Source: Acidobacteriota bacterium
GTDB lineage: Bacteria; Acidobacteriota; Vicinamibacteria; Vicinamibacterales; CAVVIG01
DNA length: 64,000 nt
Direction: 5' to 3'
NCBI GenBank assembly: GCA_040007095.1
Contig: JBDTVS010000181.1
Span: forward strand, 1,643 to 65,642
The notes under the pieces were generated by a model. That model made no database searches and was not told where the DNA came from. It saw nothing but the letters and a program-made list of their open reading frames with translations. The translations under genes were made by a program, and so were the position numbers. Shown here one piece after another: positions 1 through 24,701 of the stretch (position 1 is its first letter; each line of letters opens with the position of its first letter).

Positions 1-408
1 ACAATCAGCACGGGCGCGGACGTTGCGCAAAACGGACAGGCCGGTACGCAGCGGGCGGACCAGGTTGCGGGCGTCGATCCCTACGCGGACCAGTCGATCA
101 ACGTGACCAACGGTGGCATCAGGTTCTTGAATCCGCTCGCGTTCGCGCAGCCGACGGCCGGCGCGCTCGGCAACAGCGTGCGAAACAGTATTCGCGGGCC
201 TGGGAGCAAGAATGTGGACCTGGCGTTGACCAGGAACTTCCGCCTGTCGAGCACACAGAGCTTTGAGCTTCGAGCGGAGGCGTTCAACGCGTTCAACTGG
301 TTCCAGTGGGGCCAACCGGTCACGGCTCGCAGCAGCGCGACATTCGGCCAGATTCTGACGGCCGTCAGTCCGCGCGTGCTCCAGCTTGCCGTGAAGTATG
401 CTTTCTAA
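1..408 (+). CDS. TonB-dependent receptor (Oar-like), C-terminal part, 5'-truncated by window edge
   Basis: Frame 1 is open from base 1. It ends NVDLALTRNF...ELRAEAFNAFN...TFGQI...PRVLQLAVKYAF, the typical acidobacterial TBDR C-terminus with terminal Phe. Confidence 0.85.
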   Translation, partial: TISTGADVAQNGQAGTQRADQVAGVDPYADQSINVTNGGIRFLNPLAFAQPTAGALGNSVRNSIRGPGSKNVDLALTRNFRLSSTQSFELRAEAFNAFNWFQWGQPVTARSSATFGQILTAVSPRVLQLAVKYAF

Positions 409-422
409 CTGACCCGATCCGC

Positions 423-455
423 CCGGTGCACAGCACGTTGAAACCTGTGCACCGG
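423..455 (+). terminator. 11-bp perfect stem-loop after the TBDR gene
   Basis: ccggtgcacag / ctgtgcaccgg with an 11-nt loop. No U-tract, so it may be a processing or stability hairpin. Confidence 0.4.
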
Positions 456-542
456 CTTGCATCCGTCGCCGGCTTGCCATTGACCATGAAGAAATCCGGT
501 CGAATTCCCATGGCGAACGGCACAATAGCAGCAGGAGGAAGG

Positions 543-1397
543 ATGGCTAACCGCAGGCGAGCCGCGTTGGCGGCCGCGCTGACGCTGCTGGCGATGACTG
601 TCGTCAGCGTCCCGGCGTTTGCCCAGATGGAGTTCTCCGGCGAGTGGGCTCCGGTGCAGGACGAGGACAACACCGGCAACCCGTATGTCGGCGAATTCCT
701 CGGCATCCCGATGAGCCGTGCCGGCAGCCTGCGCGCCCAGGCGTGGAACGCTTCCCTCTATACGCTGCCGGAATGGCAGTGTCGGCCCCACGGGGCCATG
801 TATATTTCGCGCGGTCCTTCGCAGGTGCGTATCTGGAAGGAAGTCGATCCGGTCTCCCGTCAAATCGTCGCCTATCACGCGGAATGGTTGCGGTCCGTCG
901 ACAATCCGTACTTCCTCGACGGCCGCCCGCGTCCGTCTCAACTGACGCCGCACACCTGGGGCGGATTCTCCACCGCGGTGTTCGAAGGCGAGGCGCTGAA
1001 GATCACGACGACGCACTTGAAAGAGGACTACTATCGGCGCAACGGTGTGCCGTCGAGCGATGAAGCCACGCTCACGCAGTACTGGATCCGTCGCGGCGAC
1101 TATCTGACGTGGGTGACCATCGCCTACGACCCGTTGTATCTCACCGAGCCGATGATTCGGAGCAGCGAATACCGCTTTTCGCCGAACCAACAGATTCCGC
1201 CATATCCGTGTACCGCCGTCGAGGAAGTTGCGCGGGAGCAAGGTGTCGTACCGCACCATCTGCCGGGAACCAACCCCTTCTTGAAGGAATTCGGGCAGAA
1301 ATTCAATCTCCCGCTCGAAGTGACTCTGGGCGGGTCCGAATCCATGCATCCCGAGCTGGCGCGCAAGATTCAACGCGAACGCAACGAGAAGAAGTAG
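543..1397 (+). CDS. Exported protein of unknown function (Cys-pair family, paralogue 1)
   Basis: GGAGGA RBS before ATG 543, signal peptide ending AFA-Q, motifs FSGEW, CRPHG, LDGRP, WGGFSTAVFEGEALKITT, DPLYLTEP, PYPC. Confidence 0.85.
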   Translation: MANRRRAALAAALTLLAMTVVSVPAFAQMEFSGEWAPVQDEDNTGNPYVGEFLGIPMSRAGSLRAQAWNASLYTLPEWQCRPHGAMYISRGPSQVRIWKEVDPVSRQIVAYHAEWLRSVDNPYFLDGRPRPSQLTPHTWGGFSTAVFEGEALKITTTHLKEDYYRRNGVPSSDEATLTQYWIRRGDYLTWVTIAYDPLYLTEPMIRSSEYRFSPNQQIPPYPCTAVEEVAREQGVVPHHLPGTNPFLKEFGQKFNLPLEVTLGGSESMHPELARKIQRERNEKK

Positions 1398-1419
1398 CGT
1401 TCGGACCAGGAGTAGAGCC

Positions 1420-2499
1420 GTGAAGAGACACGCCACGCGCGCCCGGTTTCTCTTTGCTGTCGTGGCGGGTGCCGGGTTGACGGCGACGACGATCGCGCAA
1501 CAGAACCGCGCGCCGGCGGCCCCGGCATCCGTCGAAGTCACGCCGGTTCGCGACAACATCTACGTCTTCTCCAGCGGCGGCACCAACATCGTGGCATCGG
1601 TCGGTCGAGACGGGGTGTTCCTCGTGGATACCGGACTCGAGCAGAATGTCGAACCGATGCTGGCGGCCCTCGCCCAGCTGCAAAAGATGCTGGATTTCAA
1701 ACGACCGGCGTCTGAGCGCTTCGGGGCGGAGGGTCGATCGTCAACCCTGCTCGAACCGTATTATCGAAGCGAGCCACCCAAACCCATCCGCTACGTCGCG
1801 AATACTACGTTTGCCCCGGACCACATCGGCGGCAACGCGAAGCTGAGAGCCGCAGGAAAGACGTTCACCGGCGGCAACGTGGCGGGCGAGATCGACGCAG
1901 CCAACGAGGGCGCCGCGATTCTGGGCTACGAGGAGCTCGTCGACCGGATGGTGAAGGCGAAATTTCCCACGCCGGCGTTGCCGACCGAGACCTTCTTCGG
2001 CGATCACATGAAGCTCAGCCACTTCTTCAACGGTGAAGGCGTCGTCCTGTATCACGCCCCCGCCGCCACCACCGACAGCGACAGCATCGTCAATTTCCGG
2101 CGGTCGGACGTGTTCGCCACGGGCGACATCTTTCGGATGTCGGGATTCCCGAAAATCGAGCTGGACAAGGGCGGCAGCATCCAGGGCGTGCTCGCGGCGC
2201 TGAATCGTCTGATCGACATGTCGGTGGCCGAGTTTCGGACCGAAGGCGGAACGATGTTCGTCGGCGGCCACGGCCGGATCGGCGATCTCGCAGATCTGAC
2301 GTACTACCGCGACATGTGCACCATCATTCGCGATCGAGTGCAGGACCTCGCGAAGAAGGGGATGACGCTCGCGCAGGTCAAAGCCGCAAAGCCCACCGAA
2401 GATTGGGACGGCCGCATGGGGACCGACCCTTCCTGGACGAGCGATATGTTCGTCGAGGCAGTGTTCAAGAGTCTCGCGGCGCCTCCAGCGAAGAAGTAG
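1420..2499 (+). CDS. Exported metallo-beta-lactamase-fold protein (cyclase-like) with degenerate HxHxDH motif
   Basis: AGGAG RBS + GTG start, signal peptide, motifs FLVDTG, NTTFAPDHIGGN, TGDIF, GGHG. Confidence 0.88.
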   Translation: MKRHATRARFLFAVVAGAGLTATTIAQQNRAPAAPASVEVTPVRDNIYVFSSGGTNIVASVGRDGVFLVDTGLEQNVEPMLAALAQLQKMLDFKRPASERFGAEGRSSTLLEPYYRSEPPKPIRYVANTTFAPDHIGGNAKLRAAGKTFTGGNVAGEIDAANEGAAILGYEELVDRMVKAKFPTPALPTETFFGDHMKLSHFFNGEGVVLYHAPAATTDSDSIVNFRRSDVFATGDIFRMSGFPKIELDKGGSIQGVLAALNRLIDMSVAEFRTEGGTMFVGGHGRIGDLADLTYYRDMCTIIRDRVQDLAKKGMTLAQVKAAKPTEDWDGRMGTDPSWTSDMFVEAVFKSLAAPPAKK

Positions 2500-2508
2500 C
2501 CCACGACC

Positions 2509-3342
2509 ATGTCGAATCACCAATCGCGCTGGGGAGTCTTCGCTTTGACGCTCGTCCTCTTCTTTGCGTGGCCTCCGCTCGCACCCCATCCCCTGCACGC
2601 CCAACAGCGCGGCGGGCGAGGCGGGGCGCCGCAGGGTCCGCCGGCCACGGGACAGAGCGCCGCGCCGATCGATCTCACCGGCTACTGGGTGTCGATGATC
2701 GTCGACGAATGGCGTTTCCGGGTGTCGCCGCAGAAAGGCGACATCGCATATCTGCCGCTCAACGCAGACGCCAGACAGCTGGCCAACACGTGGGACCCGG
2801 CAAAAGACGAAGCGGACGGCAAGGCGTGCAAGGCGTACGGGGCCGTCGGCGTGATGCAGCGGCCAGGCCGCCTGCACATCACGTGGGAGAACCCGAACAC
2901 TCTCAAGATCGAGGCCGACGCCGGCACACAGTCCCGGACGATTCATTTCGGTCCGGCTCCCGCCCAGGTCGGGGCACCTTCGTGGGCGGGCTATTCGAAC
3001 GGCAACTGGCGGGTGAATGGGCGCTTGATGATCGACACGGGCGGTATCGGCCTGGTGCCGGCGCTACGTCAGAGCGGCACCTCGACGAGTGGCGCGCTGA
3101 CGGTCGTCACGACGAACATGCTGTCCGGGTACATTCGCAAGAACGGCGTGCCGTATAGCGACAAGGCCGTCTTGACCGAGCACGTCAACCGCCTGACGGG
3201 ACAACAGAACGACGTCTATCTGTCGGTGACGGCGATGGTCGAGGATCCGGTGTATCTGACGCAACCATTTGTCCGAACATACACGTTCAAGAAGCAAGCG
3301 GACGCCGCCGGCTGGGCCCCGACGCCCTGTTGGAACCGCTAA
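2509..3342 (+). CDS. Exported protein of unknown function (Cys-pair family, paralogue 2)
   Basis: Signal peptide, motifs DLTGYW, CKAYG, WAGYSNGNW, RKNGVPYSD, EDPVYLTQP, PTPC. Starts 9 bp after the MBL gene. Confidence 0.85.
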   Translation: MSNHQSRWGVFALTLVLFFAWPPLAPHPLHAQQRGGRGGAPQGPPATGQSAAPIDLTGYWVSMIVDEWRFRVSPQKGDIAYLPLNADARQLANTWDPAKDEADGKACKAYGAVGVMQRPGRLHITWENPNTLKIEADAGTQSRTIHFGPAPAQVGAPSWAGYSNGNWRVNGRLMIDTGGIGLVPALRQSGTSTSGALTVVTTNMLSGYIRKNGVPYSDKAVLTEHVNRLTGQQNDVYLSVTAMVEDPVYLTQPFVRTYTFKKQADAAGWAPTPCWNR

Positions 3343-3415: not shown

Positions 3416-4474
3416 TCAGTTTTCGATCCGTTCCCGCCACAACCCCAGCGCCTTCTGTACCGGGCGATCGGAAAAACTGAACAGGACGACATCGTCCTGC
3501 GCGTGGTGGGACACGGGAGCCCACGACGGGGCAACGAAGACATCGCGCGCCTGCCACGACAAGGTCGTTTCGCCGATGCGGCTCTGCCCGCGTCCTTCGA
3601 TCACGTGATAGACCGTGGCGTCGGTCGAGCGGAACCCGGTGCCTGAGAATCCCCCGGGAAGGAACTGGAGAAACGCTCCGATCGTCGGCATCGGATAGCC
3701 TCCCGTCGCGGGATTCACGAACTGCATCTTGATTCCGTGCGCCGGGTCGAGCGGGCCGTGCCTGTGCATGCGATCGAGCGTCTCGCGGCTTCGCGCGTAG
3801 GGATACGTGAACAACGGCGAGGATTTGCGGTCGGGTGTGTACTCGAGCGGTAACAGGTTTGCGCCGAAGCGGTTCAGCGAGTCGCCCTCGATCTTCGACA
3901 CCGGCTGCATGGTCTCCGGATGATGCTCGGCGAATCCAGAGTCGAACATGTTGACAATCGGGATGTCGAGGCCATCCAGCCACACGACAGGGTCGTTGCC
4001 CGGATTGCCGTGATCGTGGTACGTCCATGATGGCGTCAGAATGAAGTCTCCTGGGTGCATCGTCGTACGCTCGCCATCCACCGCGGTGTAGGCGCCCTGA
4101 CCCTCGATGACCAGCCGGAGCGCGGCCGCCGTATGGCGGTGGGTGCGCGCGACTTCGCCGGGCAGAATGAGCTGCAGCCCGGCGTACAGACTCTGCGTGA
4201 TCCGTGACGCACCCGCGAGACCGGGATTTTCGAGGATGATGACGCGTCGTTCGGCCTCCTCGGCAGTGATGAGGCGACCGGCTTCCATCAGCAGAGGCCG
4301 AAGTTCCTCGTACCGCCAGATCGCCGCCACACACGGCGTCTGGGGCTCGCGGGGCACAATCGATCCCAGCACGTTCCACAAGGGCGCGGCGTTCTTCTCG
4401 CCGAGCCGACCGTTGAAGGCCTCCCGCTCTGGAGTGCTGGTGGGCTTGACGTAGAACGTCGACGGCGTTTCCAT
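3416..4474 (-). CDS. gtdA: Gentisate 1,2-dioxygenase (bicupin)
   Basis: Motifs [66 protein letters not shown]. Confidence 0.92.
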
Positions 4475-4630
4475 GGGCGATCCTTCGGATGGCTGACGGA
4501 TTGACCGAGCGGCTTTGGTCTCAGCGAACTGCGCCCCGCGAAAGCACGAAGCCTCGAAGTCAATCGATCAGGACGTGGTGTCCGTGTTTTCGGGTTGCAC
4601 TTGGCGTCTGCAAACGCGCGGAACCGGCCA

Positions 4631-5503
4631 CTACTGCTCCACGAGATCCGCCGCTCGCACCGCCACCTGCATGGCGCCGACTCCCTCTATGCTAGCCGTA
4701 ATCTGATCGCCGGGCTGGATCGGCCCGACGCCTTCGGGTGTGCCCGTGAAGATCACATCGCCGGGATGCAAGGTGTAGAAAGACGACGCGAATTCGATGA
4801 GCTCGGGAACTCCCAGAATGAGGTCTCGGGTGTTCGACTGTTGACGGATCTCGCCGTTCACGGACAAATGGACGTCGAGATTGCCGGGATCCTCGAGCTC
4901 GTCGGCGGTGACCAGCCAGGGACCGAGGACACTGTAGCTGTCCACCGACTTGCGCAAGGATCGCTCTTCCGGTCCCCTGATGGTGATGTCGAGACCGATG
5001 CAGTAGCCGGCGACGTAGGCGAGCGCGTCCGCGCGCGCGACTCCGCTGGCTCGTCGTCCGATCACAAAGGCGAGCTCTACCTCATGATCGCTGCGTCGGT
5101 CGAGCTTGCGTAAAGCCACGCCTTCGCCGGCGCCACTCATCGAGCTCGTCGCTTTCAAGAAGAGACCGGCGTTTTGGATCGTGGCGATCGGCCTGTTGTG
5201 GTGAATGTCCGCGTTGGCGCGGACTTCAGCAAGGTGTTTCTGGTAGTTGACCGGCGCAGCCACGAGCTTGCCGGGGTTGGCGACGGGGCTGAGCAGCGAC
5301 ACGGCCGCCAGCGGCCGCGATGGCGCGTCGGCCGCGAGCTCGAGAATCCGCGGCCGCAAGGCGTTGAGATGCTCGATCAACACGTCGTGTCCCGGGAGTG
5401 GATACCGATAGCTCGGCAGGACATCGAGTGCCGCCGTCACATCCTGCACCGTGTCCCCGTTCACGACGCCAAGACGTCCGTTGCCGAACCGGCAAAGCCG
5501 CAT
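4631..5503 (-). CDS. Fumarylacetoacetate hydrolase family protein (likely fumaryl/maleylpyruvate hydrolase)
   Basis: Motifs DHEVELAFVIG, GLDITIRG, RKSVDSYSVLGPW, PGDVIFTGTPEGVG. Lies next to gtdA. Confidence 0.9.
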   Translation of the reverse strand: MRLCRFGNGRLGVVNGDTVQDVTAALDVLPSYRYPLPGHDVLIEHLNALRPRILELAADAPSRPLAAVSLLSPVANPGKLVAAPVNYQKHLAEVRANADIHHNRPIATIQNAGLFLKATSSMSGAGEGVALRKLDRRSDHEVELAFVIGRRASGVARADALAYVAGYCIGLDITIRGPEERSLRKSVDSYSVLGPWLVTADELEDPGNLDVHLSVNGEIRQQSNTRDLILGVPELIEFASSFYTLHPGDVIFTGTPEGVGPIQPGDQITASIEGVGAMQVAVRAADLVEQ

Positions 5504-5583
5504 ACAATATTCCGTCGTTGACGCGAACCCCTTTATACACCACTTGAAAATTCTGAGTCTTGCAGGAAGAGCGACGAGGAGCC

Positions 5584-6957
5584 ATGGCTGATCAAAGTTT
5601 AGAAGACGTGTTGCAGCAGAGCGGGAACCCGGTGGAGTTGCTGAGGAATTCGCAGATCGGCCCGTATGCCTTTCCAGTGGTGCCGGCCGAGTTCACGAAT
5701 TGGCGGGATGAACAGCGGTCGTGGCGGGAGACGTGCGCCCTGTTCGACCAGTCTCACCACATGACGGATCTCTACGTCGAAGGTCCCGATGCGCTCAAAG
5801 TGTTTTCCGCTCTCGGCATCAATAGCTTCAAGAACTTCAAGGTCAATCAGGCCAAGCAATTCGTCGCCTGCAATCACGAAGGCCATGTGATCGGCGATGC
5901 GATTCTGTTTTATCTGGAAGACGGCAGATTGAGTCTCGTCGGCCGACCTTCGGCCATCAATTGGGTCCAATACAACATCGAGACCGGCGGCTACGCGGCC
6001 TCGGCGGAGCGAGACGAGCGGTCGGCCGTCAACAAGGGCACGCGAAAATTCTTCCGCTACCAGGTGCAGGGGCCGAACGCCCTCAAGGTGATGGAGAAGG
6101 TGCTGGGCAAACCGGCTCCCGACATCAAGTTCTTCAACATCAGCGGAATCGCCGTTGCGGGCCGGGAGATCCAGGCCTTGCGTCACGGCATGGTTGGGCA
6201 GCCGGGATGGGAACTGTTTGGCCCGTGGGAATACGGGAACGAGGTCAAGAGCGCGATTGTCGCCGCCGGCCAGGAGTACGGGATTCGCCAGGTGGGTGCG
6301 AGAACATACCCGACCAGCTGCCTTGAATCCGGCTGGATTCCCTCGCCTTTGCCCGCCGTTTACGTGGGTGACGAGTTGAAAGCCTACAGGCAGTGGCTGA
6401 GCTCGAAAAGCTACGAAGCCATGGCGTCACTCGGCGGCAGCTTCCACTCCGACAAGATCACCGACTACTACTTGACGCCCTACGACCTCGGCTATGGGCC
6501 GTTCGTCAAGTTCGATCATGAATTCGTGGGAAGAGCCGCCCTCGAGAAGATCGCCGAGAAGCCGAAGCGGAAGAAGGTGACGATTGTCTGGAATGGCGAC
6601 GATATCGCCAAGGCGTTCGGTTCCTTGTTTCATGTCGGCGGCGACGCCACCAAGTACATCGACCTGCCCCTCGCCAACTATGCGACGTTGCCGTACGACA
6701 AGCTGTTGAAAGACGGGAAGATCGTCGGCCTCTCGACCTATACCGGCTACACCTACAACGAACGCGCGATGGTTTCGCTCGGGATCGTCGATATCGAACA
6801 CAGCGAGCCCGGCACCGAAGTCACGCTGGTGTGGGGTGAGGACGGGCGCGGTTCGACGAAACCGACGGTGGAGCGTCACGCGCAGATGGAAATTCGCGCG
6901 ACGGTGGCGCCGGTCCCCATCGCCGAAGTCGCCCGCACTGCCTATCGACCACGATGA
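5584..6957 (+). CDS. ligM: THF-dependent aryl methyl ether O-demethylase (LigM/DesA/Dmt type, aminomethyltransferase family)
   Basis: GAGGA RBS before ATG 5584. Motifs WRDEQRSW, LFDQSHHM, YQVQGPNA, LESGWIPSPLPAVY, TPYDLGYG, VTLVWGE match LigM-family proteins. Confidence 0.88.
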   Translation: MADQSLEDVLQQSGNPVELLRNSQIGPYAFPVVPAEFTNWRDEQRSWRETCALFDQSHHMTDLYVEGPDALKVFSALGINSFKNFKVNQAKQFVACNHEGHVIGDAILFYLEDGRLSLVGRPSAINWVQYNIETGGYAASAERDERSAVNKGTRKFFRYQVQGPNALKVMEKVLGKPAPDIKFFNISGIAVAGREIQALRHGMVGQPGWELFGPWEYGNEVKSAIVAAGQEYGIRQVGARTYPTSCLESGWIPSPLPAVYVGDELKAYRQWLSSKSYEAMASLGGSFHSDKITDYYLTPYDLGYGPFVKFDHEFVGRAALEKIAEKPKRKKVTIVWNGDDIAKAFGSLFHVGGDATKYIDLPLANYATLPYDKLLKDGKIVGLSTYTGYTYNERAMVSLGIVDIEHSEPGTEVTLVWGEDGRGSTKPTVERHAQMEIRATVAPVPIAEVARTAYRPR

Positions 6958-6971
6958 GCGGCGAGTCCGCC

Positions 6972-6999
6972 TGCTCGCGGCCACGGCCGGACGCGAGCA
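6972..6999 (+). terminator. Stem-loop downstream of the demethylase
   Basis: tgctcgcg / cgcgagca inverted repeat, no U-tract. Confidence 0.3.
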
Positions 7000-7055
7000 C
7001 CGTGAACCGTATTTAGGAATGACGGATACGCGCCGGTCGTATCGGCGGAGGAATC

Positions 7056-7103
7056 ATGGAACTCGGACTGAGCGGCAGGGTGGCGCTGATCACCGGCTCA
7101 TAG
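7056..7103 (+). pseudogene. 15-codon N-terminal stub of a short-chain dehydrogenase/reductase
   Basis: GGAGGAATC-ATG then MELGLSGRVALITGS-stop, the classic SDR start, cut at the TGxxxGIG motif. Confidence 0.7.
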
Positions 7104-7144
7104 AGAAAAACCAGCTCGCCGGGCAGTTAGATGATCCCATCCAC

Positions 7145-9076
<1,932 letters not shown>

Positions 9077-9086
9077 TCAGCAGATT

Positions 9087-9701
9087 CTACTTCGGGGGCG
9101 CTCCAGCGGGCGGCATCGGATCGGGCACGTGATTCTTGATCGGGGGAATCGTCAGCAGATAGGCGTAGATGGCTTTGAGATCGCTCTCGCTCAGCTGGCC
9201 GTACCAGTACCACGGCATCGGCGGCAGGATGTCGCGGGCCGTTCCAAAGTGCTTGCCCGATTTCAGGGCCTTGACGAAGAGCTCTTCGGTCCAGACGCCA
9301 GAGGTAATGCCGGTGTCCTTGTCGGGCGTCAGGTTGGCCGCGAAGGAGACACCCCACGGTCCCGACCACGCCGTCAGCGTACCGGTGATCCCAATCTCCC
9401 ATTGACTGCCTTTGGCCGGCGTGTACGGCCGGGCGACCTTGATGTTCTCTGGATGGCCGGCCAGCATCATGCTCATGTCCGGCTCCGGGCCGTTGGGGCC
9501 GATCTTCTTGGTCGTGTGGCAATCGTGGCATCCGCCCCCGATCACCAGCATGTGTCCGCGCTCGGCCGGTGACGGCGCCGGAGCTGCAACGGGTGCGGCC
9601 GGGACCGGCTGACTGGCCGGCGGGGCGTTACAGGCAGACATCGCGAGGGCGATTGGCACGCTCGCCGCGAGCACGGCGAGTCGGGGCTGACGGAAGTGCA
9701 T
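9087..9701 (-). CDS. c-type cytochrome lipoprotein
   Basis: AGGAG RBS before ATG 9701, lipobox-like AMSAC, single CHDCH, ANLTPD and PPMPW (likely Met ligand). Confidence 0.85.
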   Translation of the reverse strand: MHFRQPRLAVLAASVPIALAMSACNAPPASQPVPAAPVAAPAPSPAERGHMLVIGGGCHDCHTTKKIGPNGPEPDMSMMLAGHPENIKVARPYTPAKGSQWEIGITGTLTAWSGPWGVSFAANLTPDKDTGITSGVWTEELFVKALKSGKHFGTARDILPPMPWYWYGQLSESDLKAIYAYLLTIPPIKNHVPDPMPPAGAPPK

Positions 9702-9904
9702 GAAACTCTCCTGTTGGGCTTGGCAGCCAGTAGTAAATGATGCGAACTGGGTTGAAACGCTGGAACTATACAACAGCTGTCGGCGTTGCGTCTGCGGCTG
9801 TGGGCACCGGTCGCGAGTCAGTTCCACTGCAACCACCGAGGCGTCATGTGCGGGGGCGCACCCCGTCGCATGAAAACGTGAGCGCAGGCGCTCACAACGT
9901 ATTG

Positions 9905-9931
9905 ACGCAGAGCACGCAGAGATCGCAGAGC
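9905..9931. repeat. Nonamer tandem repeat (ACGCAGAGN x3)
   Basis: acgcagagc-acgcagaga-tcgcagagc in an intergenic region. Confidence 0.7.
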
Positions 9932-12177: not shown

Positions 12178-13326
12178 GTGACACAAGGTCCCCCATTTCG
12201 TGCCGAGCATGTCGGCAGCCTGCTCCGTCCTGAAACGCTCCTCAAAGCGCGCGCCGCCGCGGAGGGCGATCAGTACCGCCGCTCCAGCGGCCCACTCACG
12301 TACACGCAGCTGAAAGAGATTGAAGACGAGGCGATCCGCGACGTCGTGCGCCTGCAGGAGGATGTCGGTCTGCAGGTCGTGACCGACGGCGAGTTTCGCC
12401 GCCGCTCCTGGTTTCAGGATTTCATCCTGTCGTTGACAGGTACCGACATCACCTTTGTCGAGTCGTCGCAGACGGTGTCGGCGGCGTTGCCGTTTCAGGA
12501 CGACGCCACCATCGAGAAGCTCCCCGGCCATATCGTGCGGGTCACCAAGAAACTGGCGCGGGAGAAGGGCATCTTCACCGAACATTTTGCCTTCCTGAAG
12601 AATCTGACGAATCAAACGCCCAAGATCAGCCTGCCGTCGCCGAGCATGCTGCATTTCTGGGGAGGCCGGGCGGCCATCGACGCGGCGGTCTACCCGGATC
12701 TCGCCGAATTCTGGGAGGACGCCGTCAACATCTGGGTCGCCGAGATCAAGGCGCTGTATGCATTGGGCTGCCGTTACATCCAGATCGACGATGTGACTTT
12801 TCCGCTGATCTGCGATCCGAACGGTCAAGCGGCGCTGCGCCAGCGTGGCGACGATCCGGCCGAAATCCTGAGCACGTATGCGGGCGTCCTGACGCGGATC
12901 GCCGCCGGTGCGCCCGCCGACATGACGATCGGCATGCACATGTGCCGCGGAAACAACCGCGGAAAGTGGATGGGCAGCGGCGGATACGAGTACGTCAGCG
13001 AGGTGGTGTTCCGCCAGGTCGGCATCGCCAACTACTTCATGGAGTACGACAGCGATCGTGCCGGCGATTTCGCGCCGCTGCGCCACGTTCCGGCGGGCAA
13101 GCGGGTCATCCTCGGCCTGGTCTCGTCGAAAACGCCCGTGCTCGAGTCCCGCGACCTGCTCAAGCGCCGCATCGACGCCGCGGCGAAATACCTGCCGCTC
13201 GAACAGTTGTGTCTGAGTCCGCAGTGCGGCTTTGCCAGCAACTTCATGGGCAACCCGGTGACCGCCGACGATCAGCGCCGTAAGCTCGAACTGGTCGTCG
13301 AAACCGCCCGGGAAGTCTGGGGATGA
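12178..13326 (+). CDS. Cobalamin-independent methionine synthase II family protein (short single-barrel MetE-like, YxjH type)
   Basis: Motifs FRAEHVGSLLRP, TDGEFRR, HMCRGN (Zn His/Cys), EYDSDRAGDF, LSPQCGFAS. Confidence 0.9.
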   Translation: MTQGPPFRAEHVGSLLRPETLLKARAAAEGDQYRRSSGPLTYTQLKEIEDEAIRDVVRLQEDVGLQVVTDGEFRRRSWFQDFILSLTGTDITFVESSQTVSAALPFQDDATIEKLPGHIVRVTKKLAREKGIFTEHFAFLKNLTNQTPKISLPSPSMLHFWGGRAAIDAAVYPDLAEFWEDAVNIWVAEIKALYALGCRYIQIDDVTFPLICDPNGQAALRQRGDDPAEILSTYAGVLTRIAAGAPADMTIGMHMCRGNNRGKWMGSGGYEYVSEVVFRQVGIANYFMEYDSDRAGDFAPLRHVPAGKRVILGLVSSKTPVLESRDLLKRRIDAAAKYLPLEQLCLSPQCGFASNFMGNPVTADDQRRKLELVVETAREVWG

Positions 13327-16392: not shown

Positions 16393-16481
16393 CATTCAGA
16401 CAACGCCGAGTGCCAAACCCAGGCGCCCGGCTGTCAATTGCTGGCAGATCGACACACCGAAAAACAGAGGACCTCTGAATG
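16393..16481 (+). promoter_or_regulatory. Structured 5' leader with alternative pairings over RBS and start codon (candidate translational switch)
   Basis: Hairpin at 16399-16435. cattcaga (16393-16400) is complementary to tctgaatg (16474-16481). A cagag/ctctg mini-hairpin covers the RBS. Confidence 0.4.
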
Positions 16482-17588
16482 ACAACGAAGATCGTCGACA
16501 CCATTCTTCCCACGACCATGGTGGGATCCTATCCCCGGCCCCACTGGTTCAAGCACCAGTTGCTCGGTCGCGACATTCAGGTCGCGTTCAAGGAAGTTCA
16601 ACACGAAGAGGCGTACGTCGACGCCGTGGCGACCGTCATCCGCGATCAGGAAGAAGCGGGCCTCGACATCGTGACCGACGGCAACATGTGGTACGACGAC
16701 TACGTCGGCGTCATCGGTTCGTTTTGCTGGTACATGTACGAGCGGATCGGCGGCTTCGAGCAAGCCAGGGAGCCGCATCCGTCGTATGCCGATTCTACCG
16801 ATGAGAGTCTGGGGAGAGACCTCCTCGACGACTGGGGTGGCGTCATCAACAGCGGGCCGGTAACCCACGGGCCCCTCCGCCTCGCCGATCTCTACAAGAT
16901 TGCCAAGAAGCATGCGCACGTCCCGGTGAAGGTGTCGGTCGGGGCCGGCCCCGCGAACCTTGCCTGGCATGCGTACTTCAAGCACTACAAGAACGCGAAG
17001 GAACTGAGCCTCGCGCTGGCGCCAATCTTCAACGCCGAGATGAAATCGCTGGTCAAGGCGGGCGCCAAGTACCTGCAGTTCGAAGACCTCGGTGCGTGGC
17101 TGCCGCTGTTCACCGGCGACAAGAACGACTACACGTGGATCAAGGACGTCGTCGCTCGGTGCTGCGACGGCGTGGACGCCACGATTGGCTGGCACTTCTG
17201 TTACGGGAATGCCTGGGGCAACGACATTCTGAGCGCCAGTTTTCCCGAGGGCTACCAGACGGTCCTTCCTCATTTCTTCGACACCCCCGGCATCGACGGG
17301 TTCGTGCTCGACTACGCGAATCGCGACATGGCCGGCATCGAGTTCATGAAGAACCTGCCAAAGGACAAACACCTCCAGGTGGGCGTCGTCGACATCCGCA
17401 CCAACGCGATGGAAACGCCGGCGCAGATTGTCGCCCGGATCAAGAAGGTGCTTGATGCCGTGCCCGCCGAGCGTGTGATTCTCAGTACGGACTGCGGCAT
17501 GAAGCCGCTCGCCCGCATGGTTGCCAAGCAGAAGCTGAGAGCGCTCAGCCAGGCCGCGCAGATCGTGCGGAAGGAGTTGGGCGCTTAG
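16479..17588 (+). CDS. MetE-like Zn thiol-alkyltransferase (methionine synthase II / epoxyalkane:CoM transferase-like)
   Basis: Motifs LPTTMVGSYPRP, RDQEEAGLDIVTDG, HFCYGN, VGVVDIR, STDCG. Confidence 0.88.
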   Translation: MTTKIVDTILPTTMVGSYPRPHWFKHQLLGRDIQVAFKEVQHEEAYVDAVATVIRDQEEAGLDIVTDGNMWYDDYVGVIGSFCWYMYERIGGFEQAREPHPSYADSTDESLGRDLLDDWGGVINSGPVTHGPLRLADLYKIAKKHAHVPVKVSVGAGPANLAWHAYFKHYKNAKELSLALAPIFNAEMKSLVKAGAKYLQFEDLGAWLPLFTGDKNDYTWIKDVVARCCDGVDATIGWHFCYGNAWGNDILSASFPEGYQTVLPHFFDTPGIDGFVLDYANRDMAGIEFMKNLPKDKHLQVGVVDIRTNAMETPAQIVARIKKVLDAVPAERVILSTDCGMKPLARMVAKQKLRALSQAAQIVRKELGA

Positions 17589-18984: not shown

Positions 18985-19866
18985 ATGGCAAACCTCGGAT
19001 ACGTCGGCCTCGGCGCGATGGGCGGCCTCATGGCCGAGCGTCTAATCAGCAAGGGCCATTCGGTCACCGGCTACAACCGCACGAAGTCGAAGGCGCAAGG
19101 ACTCATCGACCAGGGGATGCAGTGGGCTGATTCGCCGCGCGAGGTCGCGGCGGCATCCGAGGCGACCTTCGTGATGGTGACCAATTCCGCCGCGCTCGAA
19201 GCGGTGGCCAACGGTCCCGATGGATTGCTCGCCGGACTGGGCAGCGGTAAGCTGCTCATCGACATGAGCACGGTCAGCCCGGCGGTCAGCCGCGCGTTGG
19301 CTCTGAGAGTCCGCGCCCAGGGTTCGGACATGGTGGATGCTCCTGTCTCCGGCAGCGTCGTCACGCTGCAGCAGGGCAAGTTGTCGGTGATGGTCGGCGG
19401 TGAGAAGGGCGGCTTCGATCGGGCGAAGCCGCTGCTCGACGACGTCGGACCGCGGGTGACGCACGTGGGTCCCAACGGGCTTGCACTGTCGATGAAGATC
19501 GCGATCAATCTCAGCCTGGCCGTGCAGATGCTGGCGTTCTCAGAAGGCCTGCTACTGGCGGAGAAGAGCGGCATTCCGCGCGAGGTCGCCGTCGACGTGA
19601 TGACCCACAGCGTCATCGGATCGCCGATGGTGCAATACCGGGGACCGATGGTGCTCAACATGCCGGAGGAAGCCTGGTTCGACGTCAACATGATGCAGAA
19701 AGACATGTTGCTCGCCCTCGAGATGGGCCGGCAGCTGGACGTGCCGCTCCCGACCACGGCGGTGACCAACGAGATGCTGACGGCGGCGCGGGGGATGGGG
19801 CTCGCGAAAAAGGATTTCGCAATCCTGTTCGAAGCGCTGTCGCGTATGGCAGGAGTCCAGAAATGA
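18985..19866 (+). CDS. NAD(P)-dependent beta-hydroxyacid dehydrogenase (3-hydroxyisobutyrate/tartronate semialdehyde reductase family)
   Basis: Motifs GYVGLGAMG, IDMSTVSP, DAPVSGS, MKIAIN, MMQKDM. Confidence 0.92.
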   Translation: MANLGYVGLGAMGGLMAERLISKGHSVTGYNRTKSKAQGLIDQGMQWADSPREVAAASEATFVMVTNSAALEAVANGPDGLLAGLGSGKLLIDMSTVSPAVSRALALRVRAQGSDMVDAPVSGSVVTLQQGKLSVMVGGEKGGFDRAKPLLDDVGPRVTHVGPNGLALSMKIAINLSLAVQMLAFSEGLLLAEKSGIPREVAVDVMTHSVIGSPMVQYRGPMVLNMPEEAWFDVNMMQKDMLLALEMGRQLDVPLPTTAVTNEMLTAARGMGLAKKDFAILFEALSRMAGVQK

Positions 19867-20864
19867 CTGTAACGGCGAAAAAGAAGGCGGGTGTCGCCGA
19901 CGACATCGGCGCTGAACGTCTCCTGCACATGTACCGGCAGATGGTGGCGATCCGCCTGTTCGAGGAGCGTGTCAACGATCTCTACACCCGCGCGCTGATG
20001 CCCGGGTTGGCGCATCTGTACATCGGGGAAGAGGCGATCGCGGTCGGCATCTGCGAGGTGCTCACGCGCGAGGACTACATCACGAGCACGCACCGGGGTC
20101 ATGGCCACTGTCTCGCGAAGGGTGCGTCGCCGGATCGCATGTTTGCGGAGCTGCTCGGCAAAGAAGCGGGCTACTGCAAGGGCAAGGGCGGATCGATGCA
20201 TATTGCCGATCCGGCCACCGGCAACCTCGGCGCCAATGCCATCGTCGGCGGCAGTGCGGGCATTGCCACGGGCGCGGCCTTCTCCGCCAAGTATTTGAAA
20301 ACCGGGCAGGTGTCGGTGTGCTTCTTCGGTGAGGGCGCCCTCGGCCAGGGTTTGCTCTACGAGGAGATGAACCTCGCGCAGTTGTGGAAGCTGCCGGTCA
20401 TCTTCGTCTGCGAGAACAACGGCTACAACGAGTACACGCATTTTTCCGAGTCGACGGCCGGCGACGTGTGCGCGCGCGCCGCCGCGTTCGGCATCCGGAC
20501 CGAGACGGTCGACGGCCAGAACGTCCGGGCCGTCTACGCTGCGGCCCAGGCCCATATCGAGCGAGCGCGAAACGGTGAGGGCCCGGCCTTTCTCGAGTTC
20601 AAGACGTACCGCTACCACGGGCATCACGTCGGCGACATCGCCCGGGCGTACTACCGCCCGAAGGCGGAAGAAGAGGAATGGGTCACCGAGCGGGATCCCG
20701 TCACCCTCCATGGGCAGTGGCTCATGGCGAATGGCGTGGCCGATCGCGCTGCCCTCGATGCGATTCAGGACGAGCTCGTCGCGCAGATGGATGCGGCGGT
20801 GGAGTTTGCCGTCGGCTCGTCCTACCCGGACCCCAGCAAAGTGGACCAGGACATCTATGCTTGA
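19863..20864 (+). CDS. TPP-dependent dehydrogenase E1 alpha subunit (AcoA/PdhA-like)
   Basis: Motifs HLYIGEEA, STHRGHGH, GKGGSMH, FFGEGA...ENNGY. ATGA overlap with the upstream gene. Confidence 0.93.
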   Translation: MTVTAKKKAGVADDIGAERLLHMYRQMVAIRLFEERVNDLYTRALMPGLAHLYIGEEAIAVGICEVLTREDYITSTHRGHGHCLAKGASPDRMFAELLGKEAGYCKGKGGSMHIADPATGNLGANAIVGGSAGIATGAAFSAKYLKTGQVSVCFFGEGALGQGLLYEEMNLAQLWKLPVIFVCENNGYNEYTHFSESTAGDVCARAAAFGIRTETVDGQNVRAVYAAAQAHIERARNGEGPAFLEFKTYRYHGHHVGDIARAYYRPKAEEEEWVTERDPVTLHGQWLMANGVADRAALDAIQDELVAQMDAAVEFAVGSSYPDPSKVDQDIYA

Positions 20865-21858
20865 GACTGCCACACCGGTGCGAGAGCTGTCGTTCGGCGA
20901 CGCGATCAAGGAAGCCATCGCAGAAGAGATGCGCCGCGATCCGAGCGTAATCCTCATGGGAGAGGACGTGGCGGAGGCGGGCACGACCTTCAAGGTGCTC
21001 ACCGGGCTCGTCGACGAGTTCGGCAAGGATCGCATCATCGATACGCCGATTTCCGAAGCCGGCTTCACCGGCCTCGGGGTCGGCGCCGCCATGACCGGTC
21101 TGCGTCCGATCGTCGACATCATGTTCGGCGATTTCCTGACGATCATCATGGACCAGGTCGTCAACCAGGCGGCCAAGATCCACTACATGTCCGGGGGGCA
21201 CTGGAAGGTGCCGATGGTCGTTCGCTGCACGATGGGCGCGACGCGCCGGTCCGCGGCGCAGCATTCGCAGTCGCTGCACGCATGGCCGAGTCACATTCCC
21301 GGGTTGAAGGTGGTGGTGCCTTCGACGCCCTACGACGCGAAGGGACTGTTCAAGTCCGCGATTCGCGACGACAACCCGGTCGTGATCTTCGAGCACAAGA
21401 TCAGCTATCGGAAGGTCAAGGGGCCGGTGCCGGAGGGCGAATACGTCATCCCGCTGGGCGTTGCCGACGTGAAGCGGACGGGGAGCGACCTGACGATCAT
21501 CGCGCTCAGCAGCATGGTGCAGGTGGCGCTCGGCGCCGCCAAGCTGCTCGAGGACGTGGGCGTCAGCGTGGAGGTCGTGGATCCGCGTACCACGTGGCCG
21601 CTCGACGAGAAGGCGCTGATTGAGTCGGTGAAAAAGACCTCGCGCTGCATCGTGATGGACGAAGGCTACGGTCGTTATGGTGTGGCCGCCGAGCTCGCGG
21701 CGGTGGTGGCCCAAGGGGCGTTCTATCATCTCGACGCGCCGGTCTCGCGGCTGTGCGCGATGCACGTGCCGATACCGTTCTCGCCCTCGCTTGAAGACGT
21801 GACGGTGCCGAACGAGCGGCAGGTCGTCGACCTGGCGTTGAAGCTGTGCGGGAAATAG
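20857..21858 (+). CDS. TPP-dependent dehydrogenase E1 beta subunit
   Basis: Motifs MGEDV, DTPISEAG, AAQHSQS, IRDDNPVVIFEHK, PIPFSPSLE. Overlaps the E1a stop. Confidence 0.93.
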   Translation: MLETATPVRELSFGDAIKEAIAEEMRRDPSVILMGEDVAEAGTTFKVLTGLVDEFGKDRIIDTPISEAGFTGLGVGAAMTGLRPIVDIMFGDFLTIIMDQVVNQAAKIHYMSGGHWKVPMVVRCTMGATRRSAAQHSQSLHAWPSHIPGLKVVVPSTPYDAKGLFKSAIRDDNPVVIFEHKISYRKVKGPVPEGEYVIPLGVADVKRTGSDLTIIALSSMVQVALGAAKLLEDVGVSVEVVDPRTTWPLDEKALIESVKKTSRCIVMDEGYGRYGVAAELAAVVAQGAFYHLDAPVSRLCAMHVPIPFSPSLEDVTVPNERQVVDLALKLCGK

Positions 21859-21983
21859 ATGAAGGCCACCACCAGGCTGACCGGATGCGGCCAGAACACG
21901 AATCAGTGGCTCGGTCGCCGGCGCGACACGTTGCGGCGAGAATGAGCACAGTGGCGCGGCGTGCGCGCCGGGCGCTTGACGAC

Positions 21984-22023
21984 TCGGTGGTCGATCCGAT
22001 TATTCGGCGGTCGATCCGATTAT
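21984..22023. repeat. 20-bp tandem duplication overlapping a possible promoter
   Basis: tcggtggtcgatccgattat / tcggcggtcgatccgattat. TTGACG at 21976 with GATTAT 16 nt downstream. Confidence 0.75.
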
Positions 22024-22046
22024 GTGGTGTCCGGCGTCAGCCGGAC
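22023..22046. repeat. REP copy
   Basis: tgtggtgtccggcgtcagccggac. Confidence 0.75.
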
Positions 22047-22064
22047 TGTCAGAGGAGGTAAGTC

Positions 22065-23411
22065 GTGGCGATCAAAACCTACGGAACGATGGCGGTCGAT
22101 TGGGAACGGCGGATCGACTTCGATCGGCTGCGTCGCGAGCGTCTGGATCGGGTCAAGGACCTGCTGGTGAAGTCCGAAATGGGCTCGGTGCTGTGCTTCG
22201 ACATGAACAACGTGCGCTATATCACGGCGACGCACATCGGCACCTGGGCGCAGGACAAGATCAGCCGCTTCACGCTGCTCGCGCAAAACGACGAACCGAT
22301 CCTGTGGGACTTCGGATCGGCGGCCAGGCACCACGCGCTCAATTGCGACTGGCTCGGCGAGCGGTCGCGCGCAGGCATTCCGTTGATGCGCGGCGCGATG
22401 TCGCCCGAGATGGGACGCGCCGAAGAGGTCGCCAAGAAGATTCGCGTCGAGCTCGAGATGCGCGGCCTGCACAAGGAGCCGGTCGGCGTGGACGTCGTCG
22501 AGCCGCCGATCTTGTTCGCGTTGCAGAAGGAAGGCCTGACGATCGTCGACGGTCAGCAGCTGATGTCGAACGCCCGCGAGATCAAGACGCAGGACGAAAT
22601 TTCGCTGTTGACCCATTCCGCAGCGATGGTCGACGCGGCGTACCACGACCTCTACGAAGCGATGAAGCCGGGGATGCGAGAGAACGAAGCGGTCGGGCTC
22701 GTCGCGAAGCGGCTCTACGACCTCGGATCGGAGTACGTGGAAGGCGTGAACGCCATCTCCGGCGAACGCTGCAGCCCGCATCCGCACGTGTTCTCGGACC
22801 GGATGCTGCGACCAGGCGATCCGGTGTATTACGACGTGCTCCATTCCTACATGGGCTATCGCACGTGCTACTACCGCAGTTTCGCGATCGGCTCCGCCTC
22901 CCACGCGATGAACGACGCCTACAAGCGGTGCCGCGACTATCTCGACGCGGCGATCGAGCTGGTGCGGCCAGGACGGACGACCGCAGAGATTGCCGCGGTG
23001 TGGCCCAAAGCGCAGGAGTTCGGGTTTCCGAGCGAGGAAGCGGCGTTCGCGCTGCAGATGGGTCACGGCATCGGCCTCGCGATCTGGGAAAAGCCGATGA
23101 TCAGCCGTCTGGTGTCGCTCGAACACCCCCACGAGATCAAGCCGGGGATGGTGTTCGCGCTCGAGACGTTCTGGCCCTCGACAGACGGCTGGACGGCGGC
23201 CCGGATCGAGGAAGAAGTCGTCGTGACTCCGACCGGTCACGAGGTCATCACTCGGTTCCCCGCTGAGCAGTTGCTGGTCTGTGGTCGACCGTACGTGACC
23301 GTCAGCGGCCCGCTGCCGACAACGCGGGAGCTCGAAGCGCCGCCGAACCGGGAAGTGCTGGACATGATCGCGGCCGGCGCCAAGGCTGAGAGCGTCGGAG
23401 CGAATCCCTGA
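22065..23411 (+). CDS. M24 (Xaa-Pro peptidase/creatinase fold) family protein with altered metal ligands
   Basis: GAGGAGG RBS + GTG start, creatinase-type N-domain, motifs KTQDEI, GHGIG, FALET, RIEEEV. Confidence 0.9.
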   Translation: MAIKTYGTMAVDWERRIDFDRLRRERLDRVKDLLVKSEMGSVLCFDMNNVRYITATHIGTWAQDKISRFTLLAQNDEPILWDFGSAARHHALNCDWLGERSRAGIPLMRGAMSPEMGRAEEVAKKIRVELEMRGLHKEPVGVDVVEPPILFALQKEGLTIVDGQQLMSNAREIKTQDEISLLTHSAAMVDAAYHDLYEAMKPGMRENEAVGLVAKRLYDLGSEYVEGVNAISGERCSPHPHVFSDRMLRPGDPVYYDVLHSYMGYRTCYYRSFAIGSASHAMNDAYKRCRDYLDAAIELVRPGRTTAEIAAVWPKAQEFGFPSEEAAFALQMGHGIGLAIWEKPMISRLVSLEHPHEIKPGMVFALETFWPSTDGWTAARIEEEVVVTPTGHEVITRFPAEQLLVCGRPYVTVSGPLPTTRELEAPPNREVLDMIAAGAKAESVGANP

Positions 23412-23453
23412 GCGTTGTAATTCCACGATTCGTTTCTTGACACCAGTACACAT

Positions 23454-24701
23454 ATGGCCGTAAGCGTCGTCATGCCAGCCCTCGAAATGGCCCAGGAAAC
23501 GGGCAAGCTGATTTCCTGGAAAAAGAAAGAGGGCGAGAAGGTCCTCAAAGGAGAAATGCTCCTTGAGGTCGAGACCGACAAGGCCGTCGTCGAAATCGAG
23601 GCCCAGGCCGAGGGGATCCTTGGCGGCGTGACCGCGCAGGTGGGCGACGTCGTCCCGGTGGGTCAGACCATTGCCTGGCTGCTGAAGGCCGGCGAACAGG
23701 CGCCCATCACCACGACCCAGACGCAGACCGGACGAACGATGGACAAGGCCGCCGCGACGGCCGCTCCGGTGGTCACCGCTCCGGCGGGTGACGTGACCCC
23801 GGCCGGTCCGGCGCGGCTGTCGCCAAAAGCGCGACGTTTGGCCAAGGAGCTCGGTGTTGACGTCAGTCGACTCCGCGGTTCGGGGCCTGATGGCGAAATC
23901 GTGGCCGCGGACGTTCAGGCCGCCCAGGCCGCTGGCCGCGCCGCTCCGGCGTTTGCGCCTCCAGTCGTGTTGCCGACCGCTGCGGCCACTGCGACCAGCG
24001 CTCCAGCCGATATCGGATCGCTGAGCTCGATCGGCCGCCTGATGGCGCAGCGGACGACACAGAGCTGGACCACGGTTCCGCATTTCTTCGTCACTCGCGA
24101 AGTCGACGGCAGCGCCCTGGTCGCGCTTCGCCAGAAGTTGAGTCCGTCGATTGAAAAGAACCGCGGCGTAAAGCTTACCTACACCGATCTCCTGACCGCG
24201 ATCGTCGCGCGCGTGTTGAAGCAGCACCCGCGTTTGAACGCGAGTTGGATCGACGACACCATCAAGGCGAATCCAGAAGTGAAGATGGGTCTGGCCATGG
24301 CAGTGAGCGACGCCGTGGTGGTCGCGGTCGTCAACGGGGCTGATAGCGGCGACCTGGCTGGTGTGGCCGTCCAGCGGCGCGATCTTGCCGAGCGTGCACG
24401 CACCGGCAAGCTGACGCCAGGCGATATCACCGGTGCGACCTTCACGATCAGCAATCTCGGGATGTATCACGTCGATCAGTTCACGGCGATCATCGTTCCG
24501 CCGCAGGCCGCGATTCTGGCGGTTGGCGCGATGACCGATCGCGTCGTGCCGATGCCCGGTGCGTTGATACCGATCGGCGTGAAACCCATGCTGACTTTGA
24601 CGCTGTCGTGCGACCACCGCGTAGTCGACGGCGCCCGCGGCGCGGCCTTTCTCCACGACGTCGTCGAGGCCATTCAGGCGGCGGACAAGCACTTCGCGTA
24701 G
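23454..24701 (+). CDS. Dihydrolipoamide acyltransferase E2
   Basis: Lipoyl motif ETDKAVVE, E3-binding domain LSPKARRLAKELGVD, TFTISNLG, catalytic DHRVVDG. Confidence 0.93.
   Translation: MAVSVVMPALEMAQETGKLISWKKKEGEKVLKGEMLLEVETDKAVVEIEAQAEGILGGVTAQVGDVVPVGQTIAWLLKAGEQAPITTTQTQTGRTMDKAAATAAPVVTAPAGDVTPAGPARLSPKARRLAKELGVDVSRLRGSGPDGEIVAADVQAAQAAGRAAPAFAPPVVLPTAAATATSAPADIGSLSSIGRLMAQRTTQSWTTVPHFFVTREVDGSALVALRQKLSPSIEKNRGVKLTYTDLLTAIVARVLKQHPRLNASWIDDTIKANPEVKMGLAMAVSDAVVVAVVNGADSGDLAGVAVQRRDLAERARTGKLTPGDITGATFTISNLGMYHVDQFTAIIVPPQAAILAVGAMTDRVVPMPGALIPIGVKPMLTLTLSCDHRVVDGARGAAFLHDVVEAIQAADKHFA

Follow-up and report, generated by a model that had tools for sequence, protein, structure and literature searches.

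The 64,000-nucleotide stretch analysed here, hereafter the window, comes from contig C181 of an acidobacterial assembly of 8.56 Mb with 94% completeness (genome G000). It encodes a LigM/DesA-family, tetrahydrofolate (THF) dependent aryl O-demethylase divergently from a FAH-family hydrolase and a gentisate 1,2-dioxygenase (GDO). Because this arrangement recurs in relatives, we suggest that it may represent a route from methoxylated salicylates to gentisate, and we give about an even chance to the demethylase being metabolically coupled to gentisate cleavage. The sequence is present in rhizosphere metagenomes. Comparison loci are labelled L, genomes G and contigs of the window's own genome C, each with a number; WIN is the window itself. 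The three genes are located as follows.

3416-4474, minus strand: gentisate 1,2-dioxygenase (GDO), a bicupin of 352 aa (TIGR02272)
4631-5503, minus strand: FAH-family hydrolase of 290 aa, probably a maleylpyruvate hydrolase (PF01557, E 8e-54)
5584-6957, plus strand, from an ATG: LigM/DesA-family THF-dependent aryl O-demethylase of 457 aa (PF01571, LigM/DesA models)

The original prediction described a ligM-like gene divergent from FAH and gtdA genes across 80 bp, and we found all three genes and the gap as described. The gap, positions 5504-5583, is exactly 80 bp when the demethylase starts at the ATG at 5584 (MADQSLEDV...); the open reading frame (ORF) spans 5560-6957 on the plus strand and opens at a TTG, and the ATG is the probable start. 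The GDO and FAH genes are 156 bp apart. GC3 is 0.78-0.80 in all three ORFs, which is of coding type. The GDO scores 538 bits against the TIGR02272 equivalog model, above its cut-off of 442. Among solved structures it is closest to 2D40, the characterised GDO of E. coli (58% identity, E 5e-132); the HRH metal motif and the HDH align, and the gene is single-copy in the assembly.

In brief, the proposed pathway would run as follows. The demethylase would move the methyl group of a methoxylated hydroxybenzoate to THF by a LigM-type mechanism involving Tyr247. Candidate substrates are 5-methoxysalicylate or a close analogue, and their demethylation would provide the enzymes encoded alongside with gentisate or a substituted form of it. 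We infer from the gene arrangement that this product may be the GDO substrate. GDO would open gentisate to maleylpyruvate, which the FAH-family enzyme would hydrolyse to maleate and pyruvate. Transcription of both units would diverge from the 80-bp spacer, and the 5-methyl-THF is possibly consumed by short MetE-like enzymes encoded 5-10 kb downstream.

Recurrence of the gene linkage

FAH and GDO genes are located within about 4 kb of a demethylase orthologue in eight of 42 acidobacterial loci, namely the window, L009, L017, L022 and L042 and the metagenome contigs L089, L090 and L091. In L089, FAH and GDO each contain one frameshift. The adjacency might have been peculiar to this genome, a possibility that the original prediction had allowed for, and its recurrence in several arrangements shows that it is not. 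With arrowheads for gene direction and LigM for the demethylase, the order is <GDO<FAH>LigM in the window, L042 and L089. Two small cupin genes, c9 and c10, follow in L090 and L091 (<GDO<FAH>LigM>c9>c10), and c9 stands ahead of the demethylase in L009 (<GDO<FAH>c9>LigM>c10). In L022 all genes are co-directional (>FAH>GDO>LigM>c9>c10), with gaps of 15 and 16 bp; judged from gene order, we regard this string as the strongest evidence that the genes may belong to a shared pathway. The order FAH then GDO is conserved in all related loci.

Six of the eight GDO-linked loci form one clade in the demethylase tree (SH-aLRT 98), with L022 and L042 placed elsewhere. Mapped on the tree, the linkage requires at least 2-3 changes, and none of 500 shuffles gave a value as low, so the linkage is strongly clustered. 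Both gene families are rare: an even sample of the phylum, 401 genomes, contains GDO in four genomes and the LigM family in three. The recurrence, the varied arrangements and this rarity together support coupling.

The demethylase and its relatives

The demethylase scores 618 bits against the LigM model NF047885 (cut-off 580). The best-scoring NCBIfam model is that of the syringate O-demethylase DesA, NF047633, with 689 bits, below the cut-off of 800. A full-length alignment links it to the LigM structures of Sphingobium sp. SYK-6 (5X1I/5TL4; E 7e-158), and it shares with SYK-6 LigM the fold, the length and 52% identity. The genome encodes three LigM-family paralogues. Of these, the copy on C194 resembles LigM most (LigM model, 745 bits; 63% identity to SYK-6 LigM), and the C206 copy is the most divergent, with 530 bits and 47% identity to SYK-6 LigM. 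The window protein is 59% identical to the C194 and 51% identical to the C206 paralogue. The latter (L008, C206 11845-18464) has as neighbours a fragment of an IS66 transposase gene and genes for a Reg_prop/Y_Y_Y histidine kinase and a LuxR-type response regulator.

We constructed a protein tree of 97 sequences, made up of 80 genome loci, the three metagenome contigs, the paralogues and SYK-6 LigM. SYK-6 LigM and the C194 copy group together, in a different and well-supported clade from the window protein, which belongs to a separate clade of 50 sequences (SH-aLRT 99) and, within it, to the subclade of six GDO-linked members mentioned above. Representatives of the window clade score 684-702 bits on the DesA model, and only L065, from another clade, passes with 810 bits. 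Since the window clade is separate from that of LigM and stays below the DesA cut-off, the window demethylase appears from these comparisons to be an orthologue of neither. The phylogeny proposed with the original prediction thus sets the enzyme apart from LigM, and its placement relative to DesA is based on hidden Markov model scores.

Tyrosine is present at LigM position 247 in 96 of the 97 family sequences, the window protein included. The window clade also retains Y29, H60, M61, Q93, R122, Q165, F188, F189, E215 and W256 of LigM. It differs from LigM, clade-wide, by the seven substitutions Y31F, N250S/T (S in the window protein), T251C, A211Q, L214W, W217F and Y220W. We take positions such as Tyr247 to have the catalytic, folate-site and substrate-site roles of their LigM counterparts; the check made here was of matching letters at matching positions. 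A further difference from SYK-6 lies in the gene neighbourhood, with FAH-GDO in the window in place of metF/ligH and LigAB.

The protein could instead have another GcvT-fold activity, for example aminomethyl transfer or the demethylation of DMSP or methylamine: the PF01571 fold is shared, and there are weak matches to the GcvT, DmdA, sarcosine oxidase and TMAO demethylase models. These amount to 40-90 bits, against 618-689 for LigM/DesA, and together with the full-length alignment to the LigM structures and the near-universal Tyr247 they make such an activity very improbable.

A plasmid search returned only unnamed 'aminomethyltransferase' homologues of the demethylase. Its best cultured relative, 60% identical, is encoded on Rhizobium pRL9 and adjoins genes for methylenetetrahydrofolate reductase and a GntR regulator. 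Window-clade homologues are very abundant in soil metagenomes, where all 8000 scored candidates were significant. The gammaproteobacterial and Rhodospirillaceae loci L047, L049, L051 and L061 have three LigM-family genes each, in three different clades of the tree, and in L047 and L051 these stand in tandem.

To our knowledge, the characterised THF-dependent aryl O-demethylases all feed either protocatechuate/gallate cleavage or the degradation of the xenobiotic dicamba; DmtS is one of them. Few have been characterised, and LigM, DesA and the Dmt enzymes are listed in PMC9404685. Dmt, Dmt50 and Dmt06 are the THF-dependent dicamba demethylases of sphingomonads, and members of the family act on vanillate, syringate and dicamba (PMC9404685). 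The Dmt enzymes belong to the same family as the window enzyme; they show that it can act on methoxybenzoates other than guaiacyl compounds, and their products are later cleaved by a gentisate-type dioxygenase. They differ from the case proposed here in acting on a chlorinated xenobiotic whose methoxy group is ortho to the carboxylate, in requiring hydroxylation before cleavage, and in having THF-recycling genes in their clusters. Homologues without described function from metagenome-assembled genomes of soil bacteria and thermophiles have been called 'DesA-like aminomethyltransferases' (PMC9296663), and these come from the same taxa (Rubrobacter, Solirubrobacterales) as loci studied here.

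A precedent for the chemistry is found in Rhodococcus ruber R1, where a Rieske-type VanAB converts 5-methoxysalicylate to gentisate and 3-methoxybenzoate to 3-hydroxybenzoate, feeding a 3-hydroxybenzoate/gentisate pathway (PMC9867520). This precedent for forming gentisate from 5-methoxysalicylate supports coupling. The metabolic logic is that proposed here, whereas the enzyme class is unrelated: VanAB depends on oxygen and NADH and releases formaldehyde rather than 5-methyl-THF. We found no paper that ties the LigM/DesA family to the gentisate pathway in Acidobacteriota. If the clade does supply the gentisate pathway, it would give rhizosphere Acidobacteriota a new way to demethylate plant methoxysalicylates without oxygen, and thousands of genes now annotated as 'vanillate O-demethylase' or 'GcvT' would gain a substrate hypothesis that can be tested.

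Ring cleavage and the case for coupling

The closest solved relative of the FAH protein is 6JVV/6JVW, annotated as 'maleylpyruvate hydrolase' (E 1.5e-61, 45% identity). The alignment covers the full length, residues 1-282 against 1-273, including the N-terminal domain. HpaG and LRA6 are the next matches; 4maq, a putative fumarylpyruvate hydrolase, is far weaker at E 3e-26. HbzF of Pseudomonas alcaligenes is a functional analogue of the 6JVV-type maleylpyruvate hydrolase. We found no match to maiA (TIGR01262) in the genome, in a search that did not extend to thiol-dependent isomerases of the DinB type. Based on the relationship to 6JVV and the lack of maiA, the FAH protein likely hydrolyses maleylpyruvate directly, as had been proposed from the window alone, and gentisate degradation would be isomerase-free. 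The 45% identity of the FAH protein to 6JVV/6JVW, the 58% identity of the GDO to 2D40 of E. coli O157 and the genome without maiA all resemble the known isomerase-independent gentisate branch, and the assignment would add a second phylum-level example of this rarer branch. In L097, L119, L121 and L123 the gene after GDO encodes an Amdase-family (maleate-isomerase-like) protein of about 259 aa, which fits maleate as the compound that the FAH enzyme is predicted to release. The window's genome lacks this gene, and neither a maleate isomerase nor a hydratase was identified there.

Other ring-cleavage genes are present in the genome. There are three LigB-family matches and no intradiol dioxygenase. 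At a contig end, C63 46473-53010 (L101), we found genes for a 417-aa LigB-family dioxygenase, an aromatic-acid transporter of the major facilitator superfamily (MFS), an Amidohydro_2 protein, a Gfo/Idh/MocA oxidoreductase and an NAD_binding_2/DUF1932 protein. This cluster resembles a protocatechuate/gallate meta-cleavage set and is a candidate, divergent class III extradiol system that could serve the LigM-like C194 paralogue. That the genome holds this separate LigM-like copy, with a cluster it could feed, supports coupling of the window enzyme to gentisate. The expectation of gentisate cleavage instead of protocatechuate/gallate cleavage thus holds at this locus; for the genome as a whole it does not, given the C63 cluster and a BphC-type extradiol dioxygenase 6.6 kb from the locus.

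A number of observations weigh against coupling. In 34 of the 42 orthologue loci no GDO is found in flanks of about 8 kb, and 13 of the 39 orthologue-bearing genomes have no GDO match. GDO-linked and unlinked orthologues differ consistently at only three positions, P34, L116 and S123 being the residues of the core clade; L022 and L042 have the residues of unlinked orthologues there. The FAH-GDO pair occurs, together with an exported module around a metallo-beta-lactamase (MBL) fold protein, in G122 and G343, neither of which has a LigM-family match at E 1e-100. In locus L116, FAH-GDO is divergent from c9-c10, with the demethylase gene on a different contig. The orthologues are most often accompanied by the two small cupins (28 of the 42 loci), and an E1a/E1b/M24/E2 set neighbours them as often as GDO does (8 of the 42). 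Seen from GDO, the frequent neighbours of FAH-GDO are the exported module (unknown-MBL-unknown), an aromatic-acid MFS transporter and a TonB-type receptor. The BphC-type dioxygenase, which is accompanied by an aromatic-acid transporter, could take a catecholic product. Near-identical metatranscriptome contigs were not found for GDO and FAH, for which the matches come from relatives of about 90% identity. Co-occurrence, finally, is weak evidence: GDO is found in 26 of the 39 genomes with a close demethylase orthologue, and since it is also found in 12 of 39 control genomes (31%) with only more distant LigM-family clades, the association is partly driven by taxon and lifestyle. The GDO-positive control genomes are all Proteobacteria and Acidobacteriota, with none among about 17 Actinomycetota, and of the phylum sample only the window's own genome has both GDO and the LigM family.

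We also considered a shift in substrate specificity that tracks GDO linkage. It was dropped, since P34, L116 and S123 are not shared by L022 and L042.

Much of this would be expected if the genes were merely co-located in an aromatic-catabolic island, which we regard as possible but rather unlikely. The demethylase would then act on vanillate, syringate or 3-O-methylgallate, the BphC-type dioxygenase or the C63 LigB-type cluster would cleave the catecholic product, and FAH-GDO would independently serve imported gentisate or gentisate conjugates. The locus would in that case be an ordinary catabolic island. The LigM cut-off is indeed passed, and all LigM residues that we take to be of the substrate, folate and catalytic sites are kept except Y31 and N250. 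Most orthologues are not linked to GDO, no residue pattern follows the linkage, and GDO is also found in 31% of the genomes with other LigM-family clades. FAH-GDO has recurrent partners of its own (MBL module, MFS transporter, TonB-type receptor) and occurs in LigM-free genomes, and the BphC-type dioxygenase and aromatic-acid MFS gene are syntenic in WIN, L009, L042 and L116. Mere co-location is at odds with the juxtaposition of the two units in at least three arrangements, one of them an operon with 15-16 bp gaps, with the presence of a more LigM-like paralogue in the same genome, and with the separation of the window clade both from LigM and from DesA-passing sequences.

The frequency of the cupins raises another, rather doubtful, alternative. 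The demethylase and the two cupins, joined in some genomes by E1a/E1b/M24/E2, would be the core of a longer, hitherto undescribed pathway acting on a more complex methoxylated aromatic, with gentisate or another GDO ring-cleavage substrate as its end or one of several ends, and the window would have lost the cupins and a short-chain dehydrogenase/reductase (SDR) gene by rearrangement. Besides the cupin pair in 28 of the 42 loci, this is favoured by the contiguous, co-directional string E1a-E1b-M24-E2-LigM-cupin-cupin in several Bryobacterales/Terriglobia loci (L010, L024 and L045), by the same E1/M24/E2 set in the window at 18985-24701, 12 kb downstream of the demethylase, by FAH-GDO being divergent from the cupins alone in locus L116, and by an SDR remnant at 7056-7103 where L089 has an intact gene. 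Yet the cupins have no assignable function, and the demethylase must work in this genome without them: c10 has no homologue there, and c9 one of only 40-43% identity, on another contig.

A wider version of the coupling, which we consider improbable as a whole, is a hitherto undescribed system by which acidobacteria would use methoxylated or conjugated gentisates from plants. Uptake and processing would be the task of a TonB-type receptor and the exported MBL module, a third-clade demethylase (with two small cupins in most genomes) would remove the methyl group, GDO and maleylpyruvate hydrolase would degrade gentisate without an isomerase, and short MetE-like enzymes would recycle 5-methyl-THF instead of MetF/LigH.

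Neighbouring genes, the spacer and expression

The further features of the region are listed here.

306-3342, plus strand: three-gene module, an MBL-fold protein between two paralogous proteins that lack known domains, convergent on GDO
5532-5542, no strand assigned: conserved motif TTTATACACCA in the 80-bp divergent intergenic region, from locus comparison
7056-7103, plus strand: truncated SDR remnant of fifteen codons (MELGLSGRVALITGS, then a stop), matching the SDR N-terminus of L089
12178-17588, plus strand: MetE-like 1, BphC-type extradiol dioxygenase, aromatic-acid/H+ MFS transporter and MetE-like 2

The spacer motif, TTTATACAYCA, is identical in WIN, L089, L090 and L091 and altered at one position in L042, and the remaining spacer diverges. 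It occurs once in the window, with 0.06 matches expected. Related forms are found in L009 and locus L116, where FAH faces a cupin gene and not the demethylase. An assignment as operator of the demethylase was therefore dropped, and the motif was reassigned to the FAH-GDO promoter. On the minus strand it holds TATAAA about 30 nt upstream of the FAH ATG, from which we infer that it is probably the -10 box of that promoter. Metatranscriptome contigs from plant, soil and wetland samples are 98-99% identical to the demethylase gene and span 5573-5871 and 6553-6737.

Within the three-gene module, Pfam recognises the middle gene alone (Lactamase_B); for the unknown exported proteins neither Pfam nor PDB gave an informative match. 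Homologous modules are located beside FAH-GDO in L009, L089, L096, L097, L116, L117, L119, L123 and L124, often co-directional and abutting; in L096 (module 4896-9922) the gap to FAH is 29 bp. The module accompanies FAH-GDO in other Acidobacteriota more often than any other neighbour, is sometimes duplicated on both sides, and is also found near tandem LigM-family genes in the gammaproteobacterial loci L052 and L057.

In L089, an intact SDR gene of 269 aa (MELGLTGRVALVTGGSKGIG...) follows the demethylase in the same place as the remnant in the window, where the remnant probably marks a rearrangement just downstream of the demethylase. The cupin c9, of about 138 aa, has an intact HxHx3E...H metal motif, and c10, of about 116 aa, is without it. 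They are encoded at 7539-7955 and 9384-9734 in L009, at 9430-10251 in L090/L091 and at about 6840-7605 in L022, and they gave no informative Pfam or PDB matches. Neither is beside the window demethylase; the genome has no c10 homologue, and its sole c9-like gene, on C84, is 40-43% identical according to the representative compared.

The MetE-like genes at 12178-13326 and 16479-17588 flank the BphC-type dioxygenase and the aromatic-acid MFS transporter (13.5-16 kb), and the block as a whole is syntenic in L009, L042 and L116. A MetE1-like gene, 47-49% identical to that of the window, is located directly upstream of tandem LigM-family genes in the proteobacterial loci L066 (5193-6284) and L071 (5277-6371). 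This placement fits a use of 5-methyl-THF, and the block is a possible methyl-THF sink. In G343, where no LigM-family match was found, two MetE-like genes follow GDO, and a role in 5-methyl-THF use does not explain these. MetE-like genes are also found in L096 (10735-13933). In the Bryobacteraceae loci L127 and L128, FAH-GDO is flanked by two type-B carboxylesterase-like genes (about 540 aa) and genes for DUF6152 proteins, a PQQ dehydrogenase and a MetE2-like protein, a context that hints that esterified gentisate derivatives may be natural substrates.

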